In this document: piece by piece, positions 4,773-50,737 of the stretch
Layout of the letters: every line of letters begins with the position of its first letter
Numbering within the stretch: the stretch's first letter is position 1
NCBI GenBank assembly: GCA_045648945.1
Contig: JAZROX010000052.1
Location: 8,417 to 72,416 of the forward strand
DNA from: Candidatus Enterousia sp.
GTDB lineage: Bacteria > Pseudomonadota > Alphaproteobacteria > Rs-D84
Direction: 5' to 3'
DNA length: 64,000 nucleotides
Notes under the pieces: generated by a model
Told to the model about the DNA's origin: nothing
Seen by the model: the letters and a program-made list of their open reading frames with translations, nothing else
The model's database searches: none
Made by a program: the position numbers and the translations under genes

Positions 4773-5813
4773 ATGGCAAGACTAAAACAGTATTTTAGTG
4801 AATATAAAAAACAAAGCGAACCAGATAAACGTGCCCGTGCGGAAAACTGGGGGGTGGCCATTGGGTTGCAACAGGTTGATAATTTAACCCCATCTAGATA
4901 TTTAATTGGTATCGCAAGAGATAACATAGAAGGCAAAATATCGGTCTATGATGCAGAACGTGAAATAAATCGTTATTATCATGAAAATGTTGCATCCACC
5001 AAGCAAGAACAAGATGAGCAAGAAGCGGACAAAGTATCTGTGCGTATTGCCAAATTGCTAAGTGAAAAGACATTCAAGTTCAGTCCCGCCGAATATAAAT
5101 CGATTCATGGGGCTTTGTTTAAAGGAATATTGGATAAAAAAATAGCAGGTAAGTTTCGCACATATAATATAACCAAGAAAGAAGAAATCTTGAACAATGA
5201 CACCGTTATTTATGGTCGGGCGGCCAGTATTGCCGAAACGTTGGAATATGATTTTGCACAAGAGAAAAAGTTCGATTATAAAAATTTAACAAAACGTCAA
5301 CGCATAGAACATATTGAAAAGTTTATGTCTGGGATATGGCAAATTCACCCGTTTGGTGAGGGTAACACTCGCGCTACGGTTGTGTTTGTTATCAAATATC
5401 TGGAAACAATGGGGATGCATACAAATAATGATATGTTTGAAAAATACGCGAAATATTTCAGGAATGCGCTGGTTCGTGCCAATTATCAAAACCTGGAAAA
5501 GAATATTCCGTATACAATGGAATACTTGAACAAGTTTTTTGGTAATTTATTGTTGGGTGAAAAAAATCGCCTTGATAATCGTGAAATGCAGATAAAGAAA
5601 ACTGAATCAAAAACTACCCAGAAAACTACCCAGAAAACCGCCCAGAAAATTTTGGGTGTGTTGGCGAAAAATCCAAACGCAACACGTGCCGATTTGGCGG
5701 TGGCAACAGGCCTTAGTACGGACGGTGTAAAATGGAATTTGAATAAACTGAAACGGTCCGAAAAAATACGCCGCATCGGCCCGGATCGTGGCGGTCATTG
5801 GGAAGTGTTATAA
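4773..5813 (+). CDS. Fic/DOC-family protein with C-terminal winged-helix-like tail
   Basis: Fic core variant HPFGEGNTRATV (canonical HxFx[DE]GNGRxxR). In-frame 3 x 12-nt repeat at nt 5613-5648 encoding TTQK-TTQK-TAQK. C-terminal GLSTDGVKWNLNKLKRSEKIRRIG. Confidence 0.8.
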   Translation: MARLKQYFSEYKKQSEPDKRARAENWGVAIGLQQVDNLTPSRYLIGIARDNIEGKISVYDAEREINRYYHENVASTKQEQDEQEADKVSVRIAKLLSEKTFKFSPAEYKSIHGALFKGILDKKIAGKFRTYNITKKEEILNNDTVIYGRAASIAETLEYDFAQEKKFDYKNLTKRQRIEHIEKFMSGIWQIHPFGEGNTRATVVFVIKYLETMGMHTNNDMFEKYAKYFRNALVRANYQNLEKNIPYTMEYLNKFFGNLLLGEKNRLDNREMQIKKTESKTTQKTTQKTAQKILGVLAKNPNATRADLAVATGLSTDGVKWNLNKLKRSEKIRRIGPDRGGHWEVL

Positions 5814-5869
5814 TTTTAAAATAAAATCTGGTCAGATGGCTTGGTTTTTACCGGTGTTAGTTTTTTTGT

Positions 5870-5898
5870 TTGATTTTTAGTTGAATTTGTTGTATATT
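5870..5898 (+). promoter_or_regulatory. sigma70-type promoter of repeat module A
   Basis: TTGATT (5870-5875), 17-nt spacer, TATATT (5893-5898). The hexamers and spacing are identical in copy B (11521-11549). Confidence 0.55.
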
Positions 5899-5904
5899 TC
5901 TAGT

Positions 5905-6090
5905 GTCGACAGGTGTTCTGTTGATGGATGTTAAAGAAATCCGAATTACACTGGTGTCCGTGGGGACAAAAAACACCTCCAACGCAGGGTTGGAGGGAGA
6001 CGAATATGTTGAATAAGTCTCACCTATTTCTAGTGTAATAGTTCTTTAACCTCCAACCGTTATGATTTTTGTCAGACGGTTTTTATTTTT
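5905..6090 (+). ncRNA. Candidate structured 5' leader / cis-regulatory RNA, copy A (five hairpins plus intrinsic terminator)
   Basis: Hairpins:
- P1: 5926-5942.
- P2: 5956-5967.
- P3: 5976-5996 (CCTCCAAC/GGTTGGAGG).
- P4: 5997-6021.
- P5: 6024-6041.
A competing CCTCCAACC lies at 6050-6058. The terminator is AACCGT..ACGGTT plus a T-run at 6055-6090. The stems are supported by compensatory differences from copy B. Confidence 0.55.
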
Positions 6091-6106
6091 AACAAAGGAA
6101 AGAAAA

Positions 6107-6250
6107 ATGAATAATAAACCAGAAAAAGAAGAATTATTGATAGGGGCGGTTTTGGATTTTTATAGAAAGAATCCGGGTTACAGAATGTCCCAGAAAGAAT
6201 TTATGGGTTTGATATGCGCCCTGTGTCAACAGGTGATGAGTGATATTTAG
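6107..6250 (+). CDS. 47-aa conserved small protein, copy A (unknown function)
   Basis: ATG 6107 preceded by AAAGGAAAG. Differs from copy B (11755-11898) at 5 of 144 nt, four synonymous and one Ile/Val. The longer track ORF (6062) would start inside the terminator hairpin. Confidence 0.6.
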   Translation: MNNKPEKEELLIGAVLDFYRKNPGYRMSQKEFMGLICALCQQVMSDI

Positions 6251-6355
6251 TGGTTAGTGTTTAGTGTTAGTGGATAGTAGAATCTGGCATAATTTCATAA
6301 TTACGAAATAATTCCAGACACCACTAGCCACTAACCACTTACACTAACCACTCTA
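6248..6355. repeat. Palindromic intergenic element built from TAGTGGT-type heptamer arrays
   Basis: The plus-sense array TAGTGGTTAGTGTTTAGTGTTAGTGGATAGTAG starts on the stop codon of the small ORF. Its inverted counterpart (6318-6355) starts on the stop codon of the convergent gene. The centre carries a TCTGGnATAA...TTCCAGA box. Confidence 0.85.
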
Positions 6356-6925
6356 TACCATAAACGGCAGGTTTTCCAATGTGCCTTCGGCGACACGCAG
6401 GTTCACGTCAATCATCATGAATACGCAATCGGGACTGGCCGTGGCCAAATCCGGATGAAAAATGTGATTGGACAGCAAGTGGCTGGTATTCACCGATATC
6501 TTGGTAATCAAATGGTCGTCGTCCAACAGGGTATAAATCGGCCCGGCGTCACGCGGAACGTTTTGGCCAATTTCATGTTCGTTTTGCGGGCAACGCAGAC
6601 CATCGAATAATGTTTTAATCCGATTGTCGATATCCGAACGCGGAACACCGATAATTTCTGGGTGCAGCATTTGGATGTCCAATTCTGCAATCAATTTCAA
6701 TTTTGGGGTAATAATTGGGTTCCAATCTATGCCGCCAATGTGCCGGGTTATAACCGGGCTTTTGGCCGGGTTTGGTGCCATATACTGGGTCAATTTATCC
6801 CACGGTTGATGTTCGACCAATTTCTTTAATTGTGGGTGAAATTGCATGCGGATGTCCGAAATATGCTGGGCCCGTTTCTTGGGATTTATTAAAATTTCAC
6901 CAAAATACAATAACTTGAATTTCAT
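6353..6925 (-). CDS. RusA-like endodeoxyribonuclease-fold protein (enlarged, 190 aa)
   Basis: SDIDNRIKTLFDGL followed by LLDDDHLI lines up with E. coli RusA RDLDNLQKAAFDAL ... WLDDAQV (catalytic D70, D72, K76, D91). Roughly 70 extra residues are inserted relative to the 120-aa RusA. Confidence 0.45.
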   Translation of the reverse strand: MKFKLLYFGEILINPKKRAQHISDIRMQFHPQLKKLVEHQPWDKLTQYMAPNPAKSPVITRHIGGIDWNPIITPKLKLIAELDIQMLHPEIIGVPRSDIDNRIKTLFDGLRCPQNEHEIGQNVPRDAGPIYTLLDDDHLITKISVNTSHLLSNHIFHPDLATASPDCVFMMIDVNLRVAEGTLENLPFMV

Positions 6926-10099: not shown

Positions 10100-10735
10100 A
10101 TGTTTGACGCCAAATGGTTCTTTGATTTGGAAAAGAAAATACGCGAAATGGGCGCCGATAGCGACGCCCAATCTTTTGATGAAATTCGTGATAATTTGGC
10201 ACATCCGCGCACGTTTTCGCCCGATGAATTTGCAACTATGTGTGCATATGTGATTCTGGCCGGGGGATTTTCACAAAAAACCGCAAAGCGTATTCATAAA
10301 AATATTATGGATTATATTTATAAAAATGGTGCGGATTTTGATGCGATTTTCCAAATGTTTCATAATAAAAATAAAGTATCCGCGATTTGTAAAATTTGGG
10401 AAGGGCGGGTCGCCCTGTGCCACGATTTTTATAATTGTGTGACGGATGAATCCCGTTTGGTATACCTGGCGCGGTTGCCACATATTGGTAAAATTACCGC
10501 GAATCATTTGGCGCGAAATTTGGGTGTTGATGTGGTGAAATATGATGTTTGGATACGACGGCTTGGTGCCCTATACGCCGGAATCCGCCATACAGACGAA
10601 TTGACACCGGAATTGCGGGCGGCGTGTGATGATATGTTTTCATATTTGGTGCGTGAAACCGGTTTGCCACGCGGATATATTGATGTGGTGTTATGGAAAG
10701 CGTGTCAGTTAAAAATAATAAGTGTTAATGGCTAG
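10100..10735 (+). CDS. HhH-GPD superfamily DNA glycosylase-like protein
   Basis: LPHIGKITANHLARNLGVDVVKYDVWIRR aligns with EndoIII [30 protein letters not shown] (helix-hairpin-helix plus catalytic Asp). The ATG abuts the stop of the JAB gene (TAAATG). Confidence 0.55.
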   Translation: MFDAKWFFDLEKKIREMGADSDAQSFDEIRDNLAHPRTFSPDEFATMCAYVILAGGFSQKTAKRIHKNIMDYIYKNGADFDAIFQMFHNKNKVSAICKIWEGRVALCHDFYNCVTDESRLVYLARLPHIGKITANHLARNLGVDVVKYDVWIRRLGALYAGIRHTDELTPELRAACDDMFSYLVRETGLPRGYIDVVLWKACQLKIISVNG

Positions 10736-10813
10736 TGTTTTCTGGAATAACTATACAATGATAAAATTATTCCAGAGTTTACTAACCACTTACACTATCC
10801 ACTAACCACTTAA
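10733..10813. repeat. Palindromic heptamer-family element (short left arm, long right arm)
   Basis: Begins on the TAG stop at 10733. Perfect 10-bp hairpin TCTGGAATAA (10741-10750) / TTATTCCAGA (10767-10776). The right arm is ACTAACCACTTACACTATCCACTAACCACTTA. Confidence 0.8.
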
Positions 10814-10831: not shown

Positions 10832-11497
10832 ATGGATGTGAAAATTGAAGAATCTTGGAAACGCGTGTTGGCGGATGAATTTGATAAAGATTATTTTATC
10901 AAACTGACCGATTTTGTGCGCGGGGAATATATGGCGGGCAAAAAAATTTATCCAGCGGCCAAGAATATTTTTAATGCGTTCAACCTGTGTCCTTTTGATT
11001 CTGTGCGTGTTGTGATTATTGGACAAGACCCGTATCATGAACCAGGCCAGGCGATGGGCCTCTGTTTTTCTGTGCCGGATGGTGTAACACCGCCGCCGTC
11101 GCTGGTTAATATCTATAAAGAAATTGAATCGGACCTGGGGCGGCCTAGTCCAACGCACGGTGATTTGACATCTTGGGCCGGGCAGGGTGTATTGTTGTTA
11201 AATTCAACCTTGACCGTTGCGGCACATTTGGCGGCATCGCACGCGGGGCGTGGATGGGAACAATTTACCGATGCGGTGATTCGGCAACTGGCCATGCGAC
11301 GCAATGGGTTGGTTTATATACTCTGGGGGGCGTACGCGCAAAGAAAGGCGGAAATTGTGGACGCGTCAAAAAATCTGATTTTAAAAAGTGTTCATCCATC
11401 GCCACTGTCTGCGCATAGGGGTTTTTTTGGAAACCATCATTTTAGTCGGGCTAATGAATACATTGTTGCGCATGGTGGAAAGCCGATAGATTGGTGA
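10832..11497 (+). CDS. ung: Uracil-DNA glycosylase, family 1
   Basis: GQDPYH and HPSPLS motifs. ATG 10832 with GGAG 9 nt upstream; the track start 10814 is a GTG inside the repeat element. Confidence 0.93.
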   Translation: MDVKIEESWKRVLADEFDKDYFIKLTDFVRGEYMAGKKIYPAAKNIFNAFNLCPFDSVRVVIIGQDPYHEPGQAMGLCFSVPDGVTPPPSLVNIYKEIESDLGRPSPTHGDLTSWAGQGVLLLNSTLTVAAHLAASHAGRGWEQFTDAVIRQLAMRRNGLVYILWGAYAQRKAEIVDASKNLILKSVHPSPLSAHRGFFGNHHFSRANEYIVAHGGKPIDW

Positions 11498-11520
11498 TTG
11501 GTGGTTAGTGTTTTTTCTGT

Positions 11521-11549
11521 TTGATTTTAAATTGAATTTGTTGTATATT
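11521..11549 (+). promoter_or_regulatory. sigma70-type promoter of repeat module B
   Basis: TTGATT, 17 nt, TATATT, as in copy A. Confidence 0.55.
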
Positions 11550-11555
11550 TCTGGT

Positions 11556-11738
11556 GTCAACAGGTGTTCTGTTTGGTGGGGCTTAAAGACCTCTTTTATT
11601 TCGATGTCCGCGGGGACACAAAAAACCTCCAACCTTGGGTTGGAGGGAGCGAATATGTTGAATAAGCTCGGCTATTTTCGAAATAATAGTTCTTTAACCT
11701 CCAACCGTTATGATTTTTATCAAACGGTTTTTATTTTT
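11556..11738 (+). ncRNA. Candidate structured 5' leader / cis-regulatory RNA, copy B
   Basis: Same hairpin series as copy A:
- P1: GGGG/CCTC, 11578-11593.
- P2: 11606-11617.
- P3: 11626-11646.
- P4: GAGC/GCTC, 11647-11669.
- P5: 11672-11689.
The competing CCTCCAACC lies at 11698-11706 and the terminator at 11703-11738. Confidence 0.55.
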
Positions 11739-11754
11739 AATAAAGGAAAGAAAA

Positions 11755-11898
11755 ATGAATAATAAACCGGAAAAAGAAGAATTATTGATAGGGGCGGTTT
11801 TGGATTTTTATAGAAAGAATCCGGGTTACAGAATGTCCCAGAAAGAATTTATGGGTTTAATATGCGCCCTGTGTCAGCAGGTGATGAGCGATGTTTAG
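11755..11898 (+). CDS. 47-aa conserved small protein, copy B
   Basis: Same length, frame and Shine-Dalgarno sequence as copy A. The only amino-acid difference is the C-terminal Ile to Val. Confidence 0.6.
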   Translation: MNNKPEKEELLIGAVLDFYRKNPGYRMSQKEFMGLICALCQQVMSDV

Positions 11899-12022
11899 TG
11901 GGTAGTGGTTAGTGGGTTCTGGAATAAATTCGTAATTTTAAACTTTATTTTTTTTATCGAATCTACCCCACCGGCTATGCCGGTCCCCCCCTTCAGGGAA
12001 CCTGAAGGGGAATAACCACTTA
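11896..12022. repeat. Heptamer-family element between small ORF B and the convergent PagL-like gene
   Basis: TAGTGGGTAGTGGTTAGTGGGTTCTGGAATAA starts on the ORF stop. A 10-bp hairpin CCCCTTCAGG/CCTGAAGGGG lies at 11988-12010. The right end GGAATAACCACTTA ends on the stop of the minus-strand gene. Confidence 0.7.
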
Positions 12023-12723: not shown

Positions 12724-12798
12724 GGCGGCGTAGCTCAGTGGTAGAGCAGAGGAATCATAATCCTTTGGTCAGGGGTCCGAATCCCTTCGCCGCTACCA
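12724..12798 (+). tRNA. tRNA with CAT anticodon (Met; a lysidine-type Ile2 cannot be excluded)
   Basis: Cloverleaf by hand:
- Acceptor stem GGCGGCG/CGCCGCT.
- D arm GCTC..GAGC.
- Anticodon stem GAGGA/TCCTT with loop ATCATAA.
- T arm AGGGG-TCCGAAT-CCCTT.
- Encoded CCA. Confidence 0.9.
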
Positions 12799-30817: not shown

Positions 30818-30891
30818 GCCCTAATAGTCTAGTGGTAAAACACGTCCTTGGTAAGGACGAGTCGCAAGTCCGATTCTTGCTTAGGGCACCA
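30818..30891 (+). tRNA. tRNA-Thr (GGT)
   Basis: Acceptor stem GCCCTAA/TTAGGGC, anticodon stem CGTCC/GGACG with loop TTGGTAA, T arm GCAAG-TCCGATT-CTTGC, and encoded CCA. Confidence 0.9.
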
Positions 30892-31850: not shown

Positions 31851-33620
31851 ATGTTATCACTTAAATCAAAATACAGAACGCATACTTGTGGGGAATTGAC
31901 CGCGAAAAATGTGGGCGAAACCGTCACATTGTCGGGTTGGGTTCATCGTAAACGCGATCATGGGTCATTGTTGTTTATTGACTTGCGCGATAATTATGGA
32001 ATTACCCAGGTTGTTTTGGACGGCGGAAATGACGATTTGGAACGCGTGCGGCCGGAATCTGTGTTGCAGATAACCGGAAAGGTTGTCGCGCGTGATGCGT
32101 CACAAATAAATGAAAAAATCCCAACCGGGGAAATCGAGATTCAGGTTGAATCTTGGAATGTTTTGACATCGGCCGATGTTTTGCCTTTCCAGGTTTTTGG
32201 TGATGACGATACAAGTGAAGAATTGCGTTATAAATATCGTTTCTTGGATTTACGGCGCGAAAAATTGCACCACAATATTTTGATGCGTAACAAAATGGTA
32301 AAATGGTTGCGCGATAAAATGTGGGATTTGGGTTTTTCGGAATTTCAAACACCGTTGCTGACGGCTGATTCGCCCGAAGGTGCACGTTGTTTCCTTGTTC
32401 CTTCGCGTTTGAATCATGGTAAATTCTATGCGTTGCCCCAGGCACCCCAGATGTTTAAACAATTGTTACAGGTGTCGGGTTTTGACCGTTATTTCCAAAT
32501 TGCGCCTTGTTTCCGCGATGAAGATTTGCGTTCGGACAGATTGTTGGAATTTTATCAATTGGATGTTGAAATGTCCTTTGTTGATTTACCAGACATTCAA
32601 AAGGTTGGCGAGGTTGTAATTCCAGAATTAATCAAGACTTTTGCACCGGATGCCAATGTTTATCCGGAAATTCCGCATATTTCGTTTGATGATGCAATGT
32701 TGAAATATGGGTCCGATAAACCGGATTTGCGTAACCCGATTTTGATTTCTGATGTGACGGATATTTTCCGCGGGTCGGATTTTGGAATCTTTGCAAATGC
32801 GGTTGAAAATGGCGCCGTTGTTCGCGCGATTCCGGCACCAAAAAGTTCGGATAAACCGCGGTCTTGGTTTGATAAACTTACCGAATATGCAACCAAAGAA
32901 TTGGGGCTTGGTGGATTGGCCTATATTGTTTTTGCCGATGAACCAAAAGGTCCGGTCGCGAAAAAATTGGATGCGGACCGCATTGCCAAGTTGCATGAAA
33001 TCGCCGGTGACAATTCATCGTTGTTCTTTGTATGCGATATGGAAGAGCCAGCGTCCAAAGCCGCGGGTAAATTGCGTAATAAACTTGGGGCGGATTTGGG
33101 ATTGATTAACCCACGTGATTTTGCGATTTGCTGGGTTGATAATTTTCCGTTCTTTGAACCCGATGAAGAACGGGGCGGGGCACCAAAGTTCACGCATAAC
33201 CCGTTTTCATACCCACTTGCGACATTGGAAGAATTGTCTACGCGTGACCCATTCACGATTAAGGCGGCACAGTTCGATATGGTTATAAATGGTATTGAAA
33301 TGTGCAGTGGGGGACTTCGTAACTATAATCCAGATGTGATGAAAAAATGCTTTGATATTGCCGGATATCCGGAAGAAAAAGTTGAACAAAACTTCTCGGC
33401 GTTATATACAGCATTTAAATATGGCGCGCCACCACACGGTGGGTTCGGGTTTGGTATTGACCGTTTGATTTCCGAAATATTGGGAACTGGTGAAAGTTTG
33501 CGCGAAACGGTTGCGTTCCCGGCAAACCAACGTGGGCAAGATTTGCTTATGGGATCACCGAACGAGGTTACCGAACAACAACTGCGCGATGTGCACATCC
33601 AAGTTCGGAAGAAGAACTAG
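31851..33620 (+). CDS. aspS: Aspartate--tRNA ligase, bacterial type
   Basis: Class II motif 2 CFRDEDLRSDRLLEFYQLDVEMSF and motif 3 GGFGFGIDRL. 589 aa, with a GAD-type insertion. Confidence 0.95.
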   Translation: MLSLKSKYRTHTCGELTAKNVGETVTLSGWVHRKRDHGSLLFIDLRDNYGITQVVLDGGNDDLERVRPESVLQITGKVVARDASQINEKIPTGEIEIQVESWNVLTSADVLPFQVFGDDDTSEELRYKYRFLDLRREKLHHNILMRNKMVKWLRDKMWDLGFSEFQTPLLTADSPEGARCFLVPSRLNHGKFYALPQAPQMFKQLLQVSGFDRYFQIAPCFRDEDLRSDRLLEFYQLDVEMSFVDLPDIQKVGEVVIPELIKTFAPDANVYPEIPHISFDDAMLKYGSDKPDLRNPILISDVTDIFRGSDFGIFANAVENGAVVRAIPAPKSSDKPRSWFDKLTEYATKELGLGGLAYIVFADEPKGPVAKKLDADRIAKLHEIAGDNSSLFFVCDMEEPASKAAGKLRNKLGADLGLINPRDFAICWVDNFPFFEPDEERGGAPKFTHNPFSYPLATLEELSTRDPFTIKAAQFDMVINGIEMCSGGLRNYNPDVMKKCFDIAGYPEEKVEQNFSALYTAFKYGAPPHGGFGFGIDRLISEILGTGESLRETVAFPANQRGQDLLMGSPNEVTEQQLRDVHIQVRKKN

Positions 33621-33662
33621 TGGGTAGTGGTTAGTGTTAGTGGCTAGTGATAGTGGTTAGTG
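33618..33662 (+). repeat. Longest TAGTGGT-type heptamer array (7 units), starting on the aspS stop codon
   Basis: TAGTGGG TAGTGGT TAGTGT TAGTGGC TAGTGA TAGTGGT TAGTG. TAG occurs at offsets 0, 7, 14, 20, 27, 33 and 40, which covers all three frames. Confidence 0.9.
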
Positions 33663-33682
33663 TCGCCCGCGGCTGCGGGCGA
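33663..33682 (+). terminator. GC-rich hairpin after the heptamer array (weak T-run)
   Basis: TCGCCCGC-GGCT-GCGGGCGA followed by TATCTGTT. Confidence 0.4.
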
Positions 33683-50413: not shown

Positions 50414-50672
50414 GCGCACGTGTGCCTCGATACGCAATAATAAAAATCAAAAAAATCTTGTTCCTGCGATTTTTGTGATTTTTCTAATTGTGTATTCTCG
50501 TATTCGCTCGCACGGCACTGTGGTGCCGGCTGCGCGCAACCCGTAACGATTTGGCTGTGCTTTGCTTGCCAAATCTACTTGGTTTCGAACCGGCAACTTT
50601 GTTGCGGATTACGAACCTTGGCCACAGAACCAAAAATTAAACCGGCAAAGCCGGTTAAATTCTTGGTTGGGG
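50414..50672. repeat. Copy 2 of the tRNA-Gln-downstream module (native copy, contiguous with the tRNA)
   Basis: Preceded by TTGGTTGGGGCGC (50405-50417), a 13-nt copy of the tRNA-Gln 3' end (50663-50675). Confidence 0.85.
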
Positions 50673-50737
50673 CGCTCGGATTCGAACCAAGATAAAGAGA
50701 ACCAAAATCTCTTGTCCTACCATTAGACGACACCCCA
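50664..50737 (-). tRNA. tRNA-Gln (TTG)
   Basis: The minus strand reads TGGGGTG...CGCCCCAACCA. It has the U1-A72 pair typical of tRNA-Gln, anticodon stem AGAGA/TCTCT with loop TTTTGGT, T arm CTTGG-TTCGAAT-CCGAG, and encoded CCA. Confidence 0.9.

Follow-up and report, generated by a model that had tools for sequence, protein, structure and literature searches.

Positions 5870-6250 of the window (the whole 64,000-nt stretch of DNA that we analysed) probably hold one copy of a self-contained expression module with its own promoter, a leader RNA of ~185-200 nt, an intrinsic terminator and a gene, in which the leader serves as a transcription attenuator. The leader belongs to a real attenuator-type family, and whether its effector is a ligand, a protein or an RNA is unresolved. 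We identified more than 240 instances of the family, both in Candidatus Enterousia-like Alphaproteobacteria MAGs and in metagenomes from gut and rumen, and single genomes carry several copies. A variant also occurs in termite-gut contigs. The family is apparently undescribed: a literature search (Enterousia riboswitches, the invariant sequences and human-microbiome candidate structured RNAs, including 200 of the 408 supplementary files of PMC8040213) retrieved no description of this RNA from the portion of these sources that it covered.

Human, ruminant and other animal guts commonly harbour Candidatus Enterousia-like Alphaproteobacteria. These bacteria are uncultured, and the leader offers a handle on the clade. 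To our knowledge, nothing is known of how its members regulate their genes. Because the leader occurs in multiple copies before small regulators and secreted or surface proteins, it provides a direct route to a candidate regulon, which may govern interactions with the host. The leader is also a well-supported test case for RNA biology, being an orphan structured RNA whose two alternative folds each carry a comparative signature and whose switching strand has two identical competitors.

Two chromosomal copies of the module and their gene context

The region at 5870-6250 (copy A) combines a promoter-like site, a structured leader, a hairpin with a T-run and a real 47-codon gene (Table 1). All of the elements that an earlier note on this DNA had listed are present in the sequence, at or no more than 1-2 nt from the positions it gave. 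The promoter that the note called near-consensus (TTGATT-17-TATATT) is among them, although this wording was a little generous for a site that matches 9/12 consensus positions. We additionally identified three elements that had not been listed, namely P0 (5905-5925) and the helices 5930-5938:6042-6050 and 5946-5954:6030-6038. Copy B is 88% identical to copy A over 407 nt, and its promoter carries the same two hexamers (11521-11549). Both copies are chromosomal; one lies after a T2SSF-type gene plus Fic and the other after a UDG gene. TAGTG-rich palindromic repeats are found on either side of both window copies, and at locus L001 a 30-nt direct repeat brackets the module.

Table 1. Positions of the module elements in the window
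Feature	Positions	Strand	Details
Promoter, copy A	5870-5898	+	TTGATT 5870-5875, 17-nt spacer, TATATT 5893-5898; sigma-70-type; 9/12 consensus positions
P0, 5'-terminal hairpin	5905-5925	+	GUCGACAG / GUGUU / CUGUUGAU
P1 hairpin	5926-5942	+	GGAU 5926-5929 : AUCC 5939-5942; loop 5930-5938 = strand L1
Strand X, UUACACUGG	5946-5954	+	partner X' 6030-6038 within P5 loop
P2 hairpin	5955-5968	+	UGUCC-GUGG-GGACA; GUCC 5956-5959 : GGAC 5964-5967
P3 hairpin	5976-5996	+	arm c2 CCUCCAAC 5976-5983 : GUUGGAGG 5989-5996; arm g2 GGUUGGAGG 5988-5996
P4 hairpin	5997-6021	+	GAGAC 5997-6001 : GUCUC 6017-6021; 15-nt loop GAAUAUGUUGAAUAA
P5 hairpin	6024-6041	+	CUAUU 6024-6028 : AAUAG 6037-6041; loop = strand X'
Strand Y, UUCUUUAAC	6042-6050	+	partner P1 loop (5930-5938), long-range helix L1:Y
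c3, second CCUCCAACC	6050-6058	+	antiterminator 3' strand, partner g2 5988-5996
Intrinsic terminator	6055-6090	+	hairpin 6055-6081 (AACCGU.. 6055-6061 : ACGGUU 6076-6081), then TTTTTATTTTT to 6090
Shine-Dalgarno and 47-codon ORF	6095-6250	+	AAGGA 6095-6099; ATG 6107; stop ends 6250
Module copy B	11521-11898	+	promoter 11521-11549; leader core 11577-11706; ORF 11755-11898

The 47-aa protein has 48 clusters of relatives (43-87 aa), all of which are annotated as hypothetical proteins from Alphaproteobacteria MAGs. The two window ORFs differ by four synonymous changes and one conservative change. An AlphaFold model of the protein is a two-helix hairpin (mean pLDDT 84), and a PDB sequence search with it returned noise only.

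The earlier suggestion that the RNA controls a small-protein gene holds insofar as a structured leader is located in cis, but its tie to the 47-codon ORF does not, as many gene types follow the leader. Across the family, the leader sits at a fixed short distance 5' of small HTH regulators, secreted proteins and the 47-aa protein family, and the downstream ORF starts 100-120 nt past g2 in 126/167 cases. This spacing, together with the 16 nt between the T-run and the ATG in copy A, leaves little room for a separate promoter. All seven tested loci, in four genomic contexts, have the leader 5' of the gene for the 47-aa protein family. On the upstream side, a -10 box recurs across the family (it reads TATAAT in 73 members) and in 91/162 members stops 26-27 nt short of P1; promoter sites scoring at least 9/12 were present in 115 of these 162 as compared with 20 in shuffles. 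A sub-type represented by L120, L151 and L154 precedes a Bro-N protein. Searches of plasmid and phage collections with the leader gave no match, and only four matches came from viral contigs.

Structure and covariation of the leader

When folded against shuffled sequences, the leader gave z = -5.9 for copy A and z = -4.1 for copy B. A covariance model found exactly two copies in the window, at 5925-6058 (101.8 bits) and 11577-11706 (122.3 bits), with the next match at 16 bits. Searching relatives with such a model had been proposed as a check, and it recovered 114 copies in 100 other sources. Family-wide, 87.9% of cells were paired as opposed to 65.9% in shuffles, and the covariation score was 0.494 against 0.150 in shuffles (0/500 reached 0.494), with slid controls at 0.06-0.12. 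The differences between copies A and B lie in helices and are compensated. MAFFT followed by RNAalifold on 100 raw sequences recovered the structure only partly because variable helices misalign, so the covariance model was needed.

Covariation in more than 100 relatives backs all five hairpins of the leader fold described earlier (P1-P5, with P5 checked separately). The purely serial arrangement did not stand, as two long-range helices had to be added, one of which competes with P5. P0 is part of the minimum free energy (MFE) fold of copy A and carries a compensated C-G to U-A change in L002; its position in relatives is occupied by a hairpin of varying sequence. P1 was paired in 86.5% of cells with double changes at 4/4 pairs, and in members whose 5' arm is not GGGG the local partner was paired in 84% of cells versus 64-75% for either distal CCUCC. 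P2 (94.9% paired; 5/5 pairs covary) is missing from a short sub-type of the family.

P3, formed by c2 and g2, was paired in 87.5-90% of cells, and rare changes are compensated jointly in c2, g2 and c3. Its outermost pair is usually mismatched (A.G, n = 38; U.G, n = 33; 71/111 members), a built-in mismatch that could act as a toehold. The P4 stem covaries (one pair is GC in 48, UA in 35 and CG in 22), and copy B has a compensated one-pair deletion in it. The P4 loop, GAAUAUNUUGAAUAA (6002-6016, 15 nt), is invariant; it was included in the pattern with which the family was retrieved, and the covariance model recovers the loop in members found without that pattern. A search of the window for partners of this loop gave 0 mismatches only at the two elements themselves and 23 other matches with 2-3 mismatches. 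The loop also includes a palindrome, AATATATT.

A P5 stem of at least 4 bp is present in 161/163 members (CUAU:AUAG in 77, CAAU:AUUG in 33, ACUG:CAGU in 8, and others). Strand X' fills the P5 loop with 0-nt linkers, and because it occupies the whole loop, P5 and X:X' are probably alternatives that belong to different folds; both covary, yet they share nucleotides. The X:X' helix is in the MFE fold of copy A and becomes UUAUUUCGA:UCGAAAUAA in copy B, where 6/9 pairs differ, each change being compensated on both sides. Family-wide it was 95.3% paired, with 9/9 pairs covarying. The second long-range helix, L1:Y, was 97.4% paired with covariation at 6/6 pairs (one pair is CG in 46, AU in 39, GC in 14 and UA in 6), and RNAalifold also found it on the unfitted MAFFT alignment. 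Comparative analysis, which draws on sequence alone, shows both sets of pairings to be under selection. That the folds exclude one another is a steric argument and not a measurement, and pseudoknotted helix combinations were not evaluated.

A putative switch between termination and read-through

Each of two CCUCCAAC(C) copies is a possible partner for strand g2, and both pairings are backed by three-way compensatory changes, which bears out the earlier idea of a three-element switch in which GGUUGGAGG pairs upstream or downstream. The g2:c3 antiterminator is the best-kept helix (99.3% of cells paired; double changes in 6/9 pairs), with 19 double-change cells as compared with 0.9 in shuffles. 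The model behind the alignment left c3 unpaired, and the antiterminator was thus assessed on an alignment not fitted to g2:c3. The intrinsic terminator that had been predicted is contained in the MFE folds; a pattern scanner did not list it because its loop exceeds the scanner's 8-nt limit. A terminator (hairpin plus U-run) is present in 167/201 members (83%), and its 5' arm begins at c3 position 6-7 in 158 of these 167. The overlap of the second CCUCCAACC with the 5' arm, originally noticed in copy A, is by this comparison of relatives a feature of the whole family.

We propose that in a closed fold g2 would pair with the upstream c2 (5976-5983) to form P3 as an anti-antiterminator, and that this state would be locked by the two long-range helices (P1 loop with Y, and X with the P5 loop). 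Strand c3 (6050-6058) would then be free, its AACC tail could complete the terminator hairpin, and transcription would end at ~6090 to leave a short RNA. In the open fold, g2 would instead pair with c3 over 9 bp without a mismatch, and this helix would close a three-way junction that also contains P4 and P5. The terminator would thereby lose its 5' arm, and RNA polymerase would be expected to continue into the 47-codon gene.

The default state of this model is inferred from nested-structure energies to be termination. The median preference for the terminator fold is ~10 kcal/mol (15-19 kcal/mol for the window copies), so the antiterminator would need help or kinetics. It counts against the attenuator that P3 is formed before c3 and that, without a helper, the switch might never open. 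We infer that an unidentified factor shifts the balance between the folds and that it most likely contacts the leader at the invariant P4 loop and at nucleotides of the junction. Provided that the switch is real, a small ligand or second messenger is our tentative first candidate for this factor. A protein comes next and an RNA, from the leader itself or in trans, after that, while a constitutive leaky terminator with no effector appears improbable.

The arrangement resembles three-tier attenuators of other systems, such as PyrR-controlled pyr leaders and OFF-type riboswitches (e.g. SAM-I), in that an upstream helix (here P3, with the long-range helices in support) sequesters the antiterminator 5' strand and some nucleotides are common to the antiterminator and the terminator's 5' arm. 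Unlike these, the leader has no sequence or structural similarity to them and no Rfam match, it precedes non-metabolic genes, its two competitors for g2 are identical 8-9-mers and its effector is unknown. The T-box leader model (RF00230) did not match the element, and the downstream genes are not amino-acid-related.

A narrower version of the attenuator explanation is that the leader is a true riboswitch for a small molecule or second messenger, with a multi-helix aptamer in which the ligand stabilises one fold and thereby sets termination. We regard this as possible but unlikely. Two generic properties of riboswitches are met, namely a covarying structured domain in the 5' UTR and an expression platform whose alternative pairing overlaps that domain, here at its 3' strand. 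The fold is complex, it covaries strongly, and some of its unpaired nucleotides are invariant (the P4 loop, an A-rich linker and the junctions); members without a terminator could reflect platform diversity, and several copies per genome lie 5' of surface or secreted proteins and regulators. However, there are no ligand-binding data, none of the 167 downstream ORFs is a metabolic or transport gene, and no ligand is suggested by the regulated genes (small HTH proteins, secreted proteins and the two-helix 47-aa protein). Invariance is highest in the switching helices and not in obvious pocket residues, and every tandem unit has its own promoter, unlike in tandem riboswitches. c-di-GMP-I (GEMM-I) riboswitches likewise occur in many copies per genome before surface, secreted and regulatory genes and use terminator expression platforms. 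The leader family is like them in the flavour of its regulon only, with no structural or sequence resemblance and no Rfam match.

Likeness to sRNA-Xcc1 and trans-acting explanations

The Rfam scan that had been called for, run at gathering and permissive thresholds on the window, L011 and 26 other loci, brought no family to threshold, in keeping with the earlier failure to recognise a known riboswitch class. Only sRNA-Xcc1 (RF02221) recurs below threshold, in L011 (32.5 bits), L154 (36.0), L151 (31.3) and L120 (31.3), and no tested member met its gathering cut-off of 53 bits. These matches are consistent in strand and position. Neither the window copies nor eight further members matched sRNA-Xcc1 at E <= 10, and at least 20 non-window members in all were without a match. 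The full-length RF02221 model (1-87) aligns to the segment from g2 to c3, with P4 and P5 as its two hairpins.

Like the open fold, with its g2:c3/P4/P5 three-way junction (~87 nt), sRNA-Xcc1 has a 9-bp G+C-rich closing helix around two hairpins and a junction strand. Both are multi-copy and form tandem arrays, and both lie directly 5' of small or mobile-element-type genes, which for sRNA-Xcc1 are symE, ORF6N and Bro-N/antirepressor genes and for the leader family include the Bro-N protein in L120. In contrast, the leader family has an extra ~65-nt 5' domain (P0, P1, X, P2 and c2), differs in its invariant loop and carries an intrinsic terminator that overlaps it, and its hosts are gut Alphaproteobacteria whereas those of sRNA-Xcc1 are beta- or gamma-proteobacteria. 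sRNA-Xcc1 is found in Xanthomonas campestris, in integron cassettes and in a Xylella P4-like island. A search through SymE homologues for a true sRNA-Xcc1 yielded SymE proteins of enterobacteria only, and the regulator known for these is SymR.

Given the weak sRNA-Xcc1 likeness of some relatives, the leader class may not be wholly without kin. If the link holds, an sRNA reported from Xanthomonas and Xylella virulence work would have to be re-read as part of a cis-acting attenuator. A more far-reaching reading, which we consider rather unlikely, is that the leader is a new riboswitch/attenuator class and that it and sRNA-Xcc1 together found a superfamily. The cellular signal to which it responds would be, for example, a second messenger or a dedicated factor recognising the invariant GAAUAUNUUGAAUAA loop. 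In uncultured, host-associated Alphaproteobacteria it would thereby gate, in a co-ordinated way, a regulon of small DNA-binding and surface proteins, with the fast-evolving X:X' and L1:Y helices as copy-specific address codes. Were this true, Xcc1, described as a trans-acting sRNA in plant pathogens, would be a read-out of the same kind of cis attenuator.

Less likely again is that the element is primarily an sRNA gene, whose product (either the terminated transcript of ~185 nt or an Xcc1-like three-way junction of ~90 nt that results from processing) acts in trans while the ORF receives leak-through only. A possible route would be the exposed anti-Shine-Dalgarno-like CCUCCAACC. The element has its own strong promoter and an efficient-looking terminator, the terminator fold is thermodynamically preferred, and the sequences of g2, c2 and c3 do not vary between copies or species, which would fit a further role between molecules. 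The tandem units at L133 and L135 have their own promoters and terminators with no ORF between; they look like stand-alone sRNA genes, and this counts against the attenuator. The repeated sub-threshold matches also point to sRNA-Xcc1, an RNA that was observed as an 88-nt species on Northern blots (PMC2996969). However, the ORF has the same orientation and mostly lies within ~15-30 nt of the U-run, a gap too short for another promoter, and the pairing of leader and gene is kept in four contexts. Selection on the antiterminator would be purposeless in a pure sRNA, unless the helix is the sRNA's own closing stem.

The attenuator could also be of an RNA-RNA immunity type, as in phage P4, in which an RNA that contains g2, acting in cis or released from other copies, base-pairs with c2 and c3 of nascent transcripts and the variable X:X' and L1:Y helices are copy-specific address codes; we consider this improbable. 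The immunity region of satellite phage P4 is laid out as seqA, the CI RNA with seqB, and seqC. As in phage P4 CI and P1 C4, a central segment of the leader is complementary to two identical flanking segments (the order is c2-g2-c3), and the outcome would be premature termination. X:X' diverges far faster than synonymous sites (6/9 pairs between copies A and B versus 5/144 nt in the ORF), and relatives are associated with Bro-N antirepressor-like genes. Copies of sRNA-Xcc1 are likewise linked to a P4-type island, antirepressors and symE, and in Xylella they adjoin C4/isrK-type RNAs and antirepressor genes. However, the C4/CI antisense RNA model (RF01695) matched neither the window nor the tested relatives, the window has no phage context, and viral contigs supplied few matches. 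A mechanism acting in cis alone needs no more than the intrinsic terminator that overlaps c3, any structured RNA shows covarying intramolecular helices, and gene conversion of the ORF could account for the difference in rate.

We give almost no weight to a classical ribosome-mediated attenuator, in which translation of a leader peptide over c2 chooses between P3 and the antiterminator. A GGAGG in g2 lies 8 nt before an AUG at 6005 that opens a 10-codon mini-ORF, and the P4 loop can be read as Glu-Tyr-Val/Ile-Glu-stop. However, the compensated stem deletion of copy B destroys the frame of the mini-ORF, the consensus loop has AUA and not AUG, and ORFs that would cross c2 have no Shine-Dalgarno. 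We rejected the leader-peptide attenuator because frames differ between A and B and the length of the P4 stem varies, with no frame conserved through the region.

That the element is a repeat at the DNA level (REP/MITE-like or a recombination site) and not a functional RNA is likewise disfavoured, in spite of the multiple copies, the flanking palindromic and direct repeats and the palindrome in the P4 loop, because covariation keeps Watson-Crick and G-U pairs on one strand only, including exchanges of G-U with A-U or G-C, and the element keeps one orientation with respect to its promoter, its terminator and the gene behind it.

For countertranscript attenuation of the pT181/pIP501 type, we found no sigma-70-like site on the minus strand between 5600 and 6500, and by eye no conserved -35 element. 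On that strand, P3 followed by a U-run resembles a terminator (5996->5966).

Architecture of the leader module in its two copies

Inspection of positions 5400-6700 located every element of module copy A that the earlier note had named, from promoter to 47-codon ORF, and minimum-energy folding added further helices (Table).

Table. Features of module copy A, with helix support in A4, a covariance-model-derived alignment of 112 distinct sequences
Feature	Window position	Description	A4 cells paired	A4 double changes
Promoter	5870-5898	TTGATT, 17-nt spacer, TATATT; 9/12 consensus positions		
P0, 5'-terminal hairpin	5905-5925	Minimum-energy fold; absent from earlier note		
P1 hairpin	5926-5942		86.5%	Every pair
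L1:Y long-range helix	5930-5938 (P1 loop) with 6042-6050	Minimum-energy fold; absent from earlier note	97.4%	Every pair
X:X' long-range helix	5946-5954 with 6030-6038	Minimum-energy fold; absent from earlier note	95.3%	Every pair
P2 hairpin	5956-5967		94.9%	Every pair
P3 hairpin	5976-5996			
P4 hairpin	5997-6021	15-nt loop	90.0%	Every pair
P5 hairpin	6024-6041			
c3	6050-6058	Second CCUCCAACC		
Terminator	6055-6090	Hairpin and T-run		
Shine-Dalgarno	6095-6099			
ORF	6107-6250	47 codons		

Copy B (11521-11898) is 88% identical to copy A over 407 nt, and a scan of the window with R1, a covariance model of the leader, returned two copies exactly. Both leaders fold far more stably than their shuffled counterparts, with z-scores of -5.9 (copy A) and -4.1 (copy B). 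Between the copies, 5 of 144 nt of the ORF have changed (four synonymous changes and one Ile/Val exchange), whereas six of the nine X:X' pairs differ, each with compensation, and one base pair of P4 is gone on both strands. These changes in X:X' and P4 argue for RNA structure under selection.

Conservation and covariation across the leader family

We searched for relatives with the pattern TTGGAGG-N3-10-GAATATNTTGAATAA, taken from the two best-conserved stretches, and obtained more than 117 matching stretches in species-representative genomes and more than 120 in metagenomes, both lower bounds. Among the matches listed, those in species representatives were nearly all from MAGs named Candidatus Enterousia, uncultured Alphaproteobacteria or 'Rickettsiales'. 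The MAGs came from the guts of humans, ruminants and other hosts, and it was common for one assembly to contain several stretches. Several family MAG loci share 75-84% DNA identity with the window. R1 found 114 copies in 100 sources, some of them missed by the pattern. Because the P4 loop belonged to the search pattern, its invariance is partly by construction, but the loop or near variants of it were still present in members found only via the model or the protein.

In A4, 87.9% of cells are paired versus 65.9% after shuffling, and the covariation score is 0.494 versus 0.150 in shuffles (0 of 500 reached the observed score) and 0.06-0.12 in slid controls. A4 is biased towards helices in the model, but P1, which lies outside the model, covaries nonetheless. 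The L1:Y helix, in which all four pair types are frequent, was also recovered by RNAalifold on an unfitted MAFFT alignment. Since P5 is poorly aligned in A4, anchor-based scoring was used instead; 161 of 163 members have a stem of 4 bp or more, and the exchanges in it include CUAU:AUAG, CAAU:AUUG, ACUG:CAGU and CUAC:GUAG. The X' strand fills the entire P5 loop (5' linker of 0 nt in most members, 1-nt overlap with the 3' arm), from which we infer that P5 and X:X' cannot coexist. By this argument, which is steric and not a measurement, the leader RNA would have two folds, each with its own comparative signature.

The earlier note had proposed a three-element switch in which a central strand (g2, 5988-5996) pairs either with an upstream partner (c2, 5976-5983) to form P3 or with c3 to form an antiterminator. 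This arrangement is borne out family-wide by g2:c3 covariation, by co-changes of c2 and c3, and by the position of the terminator arm inside c3. Both g2 (GGUUGGAGG, 185 of 201 members) and c3 (CCUCCAACC, 177 of 201) are near-invariant; the upstream c2 sequence is NCUCCAAC(C). The best-kept helix is g2:c3, with 99.3% of cells paired in an alignment from a model that lacked it and double changes in 6 of 9 pairs (19 cells versus 0.9 expected). P3 is paired in 87.5% of cells, its outermost pair being mostly A.G or U.G, and where g2 varies, c2 and c3 both co-vary with it. A hairpin and U-run follow c3 in 167 of 201 members, and in 158 of those 167 the 5' arm of the terminator starts at c3 position 6-7.

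Nested energy models place the antiterminator fold above the terminator fold by a median of 10 kcal/mol (15-19 in the window). From this gap and the earlier transcription of P3, we infer that termination is the default. Read-through would then need a factor or a kinetic route, and c3 could use the basal mismatch of P3 as a toehold. The best-supported reading is three-tier attenuation in cis (anti-antiterminator, antiterminator, terminator) under the control of an unidentified effector.

Two loci (L133, 177-980; L135, 265-984) carry four leader units in tandem; every unit has a promoter and a terminator, and no ORF intervenes. Some units have degenerate P4 loops, and in L133 only the final unit has a gene behind it, whose product is distantly related to the 47-aa protein.

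Affinities of the leader RNA and competing readings

No Rfam family matched the leader RNA at threshold in the window or in 27 other loci; the only above-threshold matches in the window were three tRNA genes (12724-12795, 30818-30888 and 50667-50737). The only recurrent signal was sRNA-Xcc1 (RF02221, cut-off 53 bits), which scored 32.5 bits in L011, 36.0 in L154 and 31.3 in each of L151 and L120, always on the correct strand and always over the g2-to-c3 span. In the alignment to that model, the closing helix corresponds to g2:c3, and P4 and P5 are the counterparts of the two hairpins. In APSE phages, sRNA-Xcc1 lies upstream of an ORF6N gene. In Xanthomonas, Northern blotting detected it as an 88-nt RNA (PMC2996969); integron cassettes carry it ahead of symE (bioRxiv 10.1101/2025.06.18.660453), and in Xylella it is arrayed in tandem amid Bro-N/antirepressor genes, adjoining a P4-type primase (PMC12189769). 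A Bro-N protein is encoded downstream of the three best-scoring sRNA-Xcc1-like members besides L011, and the leader family likewise includes ORF-less tandem arrays (L133, L135). On the basis of these Bro-N genes and arrays, we regard a distant relationship as likely. However, membership is not met: the window copies gave no detection at all, and the leader family differs in its extra 5' domain, its invariant loop and its overlapping terminator. Literature searches found no published description of the leader RNA. The Bro-N-associated sub-type has, in place of P2, a terminator-like hairpin plus U7 that contains a TATAAT (L154 1860-1905, locus minus strand). This element might serve as a terminator or promoter internal to the leader.

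The tandem ORF-less units and the resemblance to sRNA-Xcc1 leave room for a stand-alone sRNA. RNA-RNA immunity of the P4 type is another possibility, with which the c2-g2-c3 order, the invariance of these strands across copies and the fast compensated divergence of X:X' would agree.

Sigma-70-like promoters scoring at least 9/12 precede 115 of 162 members versus 20 in shuffles, and their distance is fixed: for 91 of 162 members, the end of the -10 box and P1 are 26-27 nt apart. In 126 of 167 cases, an ORF equipped with a Shine-Dalgarno sequence begins 100-120 nt downstream of g2. The downstream genes encode two small HTH or HTH-like families (48 and 20 cases, the first matching HTH_31), secreted, often Cys-rich proteins (27 cases and many singletons), the 47-aa family and a Bro-N protein, with no metabolic genes among these groups. 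A strict small-molecule riboswitch is possible, but the gene set suggests no ligand.

Leader-peptide attenuation is disfavored. At 5992-6038, a GGAGG 8 nt ahead of an AUG (6005) opens a 10-codon mini-ORF that ends in the 3' arm of P5; it is probably untranslated because copy B does not keep the frame and AUA stands in the loop of the consensus. A DNA-repeat reading is likewise disfavored.

The 47-aa protein and the surroundings of the module

Close relatives of the 47-aa product are few. A profile search gathered 48 clusters, all hypothetical proteins of Alphaproteobacteria MAGs, in which no Pfam domain was found; AlphaFold models a two-helix hairpin (mean pLDDT 84). In all seven loci fetched via relatives of the protein, the leader precedes the ORF by about 50 nt, in four contexts (after a T2SSF gene, UDG, a DUF4143 ATPase or L33). 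The small gene is genuine, but it is not what matters most here.

Both window locations, after a T2SSF-type gene and after UDG, were found again in relatives. In the window, the T2SSF-type gene and module A are separated by a gene (4773-5813) for a Fic/DOC protein that has a winged-helix domain at its C terminus. Because the module immediately follows the T2SSF gene in L001, L002, L249 and L250, with no Fic between, this gene looks like a recent, genome-specific insertion. A 190-aa ORF without a Pfam match (6353-6925, minus strand) is convergent with module A, and L249 and L250 carry a 190-aa gene at the same position. P0021, a 55-aa relative of the small protein that is identical in L248 and L249, has UDG ahead of its gene in one assembly and the T2SSF gene in other assemblies. 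The window's two copies show the same pattern, which suggests that the two loci evolve in concert.

About twenty termite-gut metagenome contigs (L125, L144-L146, L148, L159, L163, L164, L169, L172, L173, L203, L206, L214, L222-L224, L228) carry the P3/P4/c3 core with the invariant loop inside a repeat of more than 300 nt. These contigs have very low coding density and almost no long ORFs; the repeat lacks a U-run terminator and matches no Rfam family. It may reflect either a homologous sequence in a eukaryotic genome or a chance match that was amplified.

On the minus strand (5996->5966), P3 and the complement of the A-rich linker resemble an intrinsic terminator (CCTCCAACCCTGCGTTGGAGG plus TGTTTTTTGT); no minus-strand promoter was found near this site. 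REP-like TAGTG(G/T)-rich imperfect palindromes bracket both modules and recur elsewhere in the window (6241-6360, 10719-10813, 11491-11513, 11897-11945, 33618-33663). In L001, a near-identical direct repeat of about 30 nt, TAGTGGTTAGTGTTTTTTCTGTTTGATTT, which includes the -35 box, occurs on both sides of the module (1190-1250 and 1610-1645) and hints at duplication or deletion by recombination.
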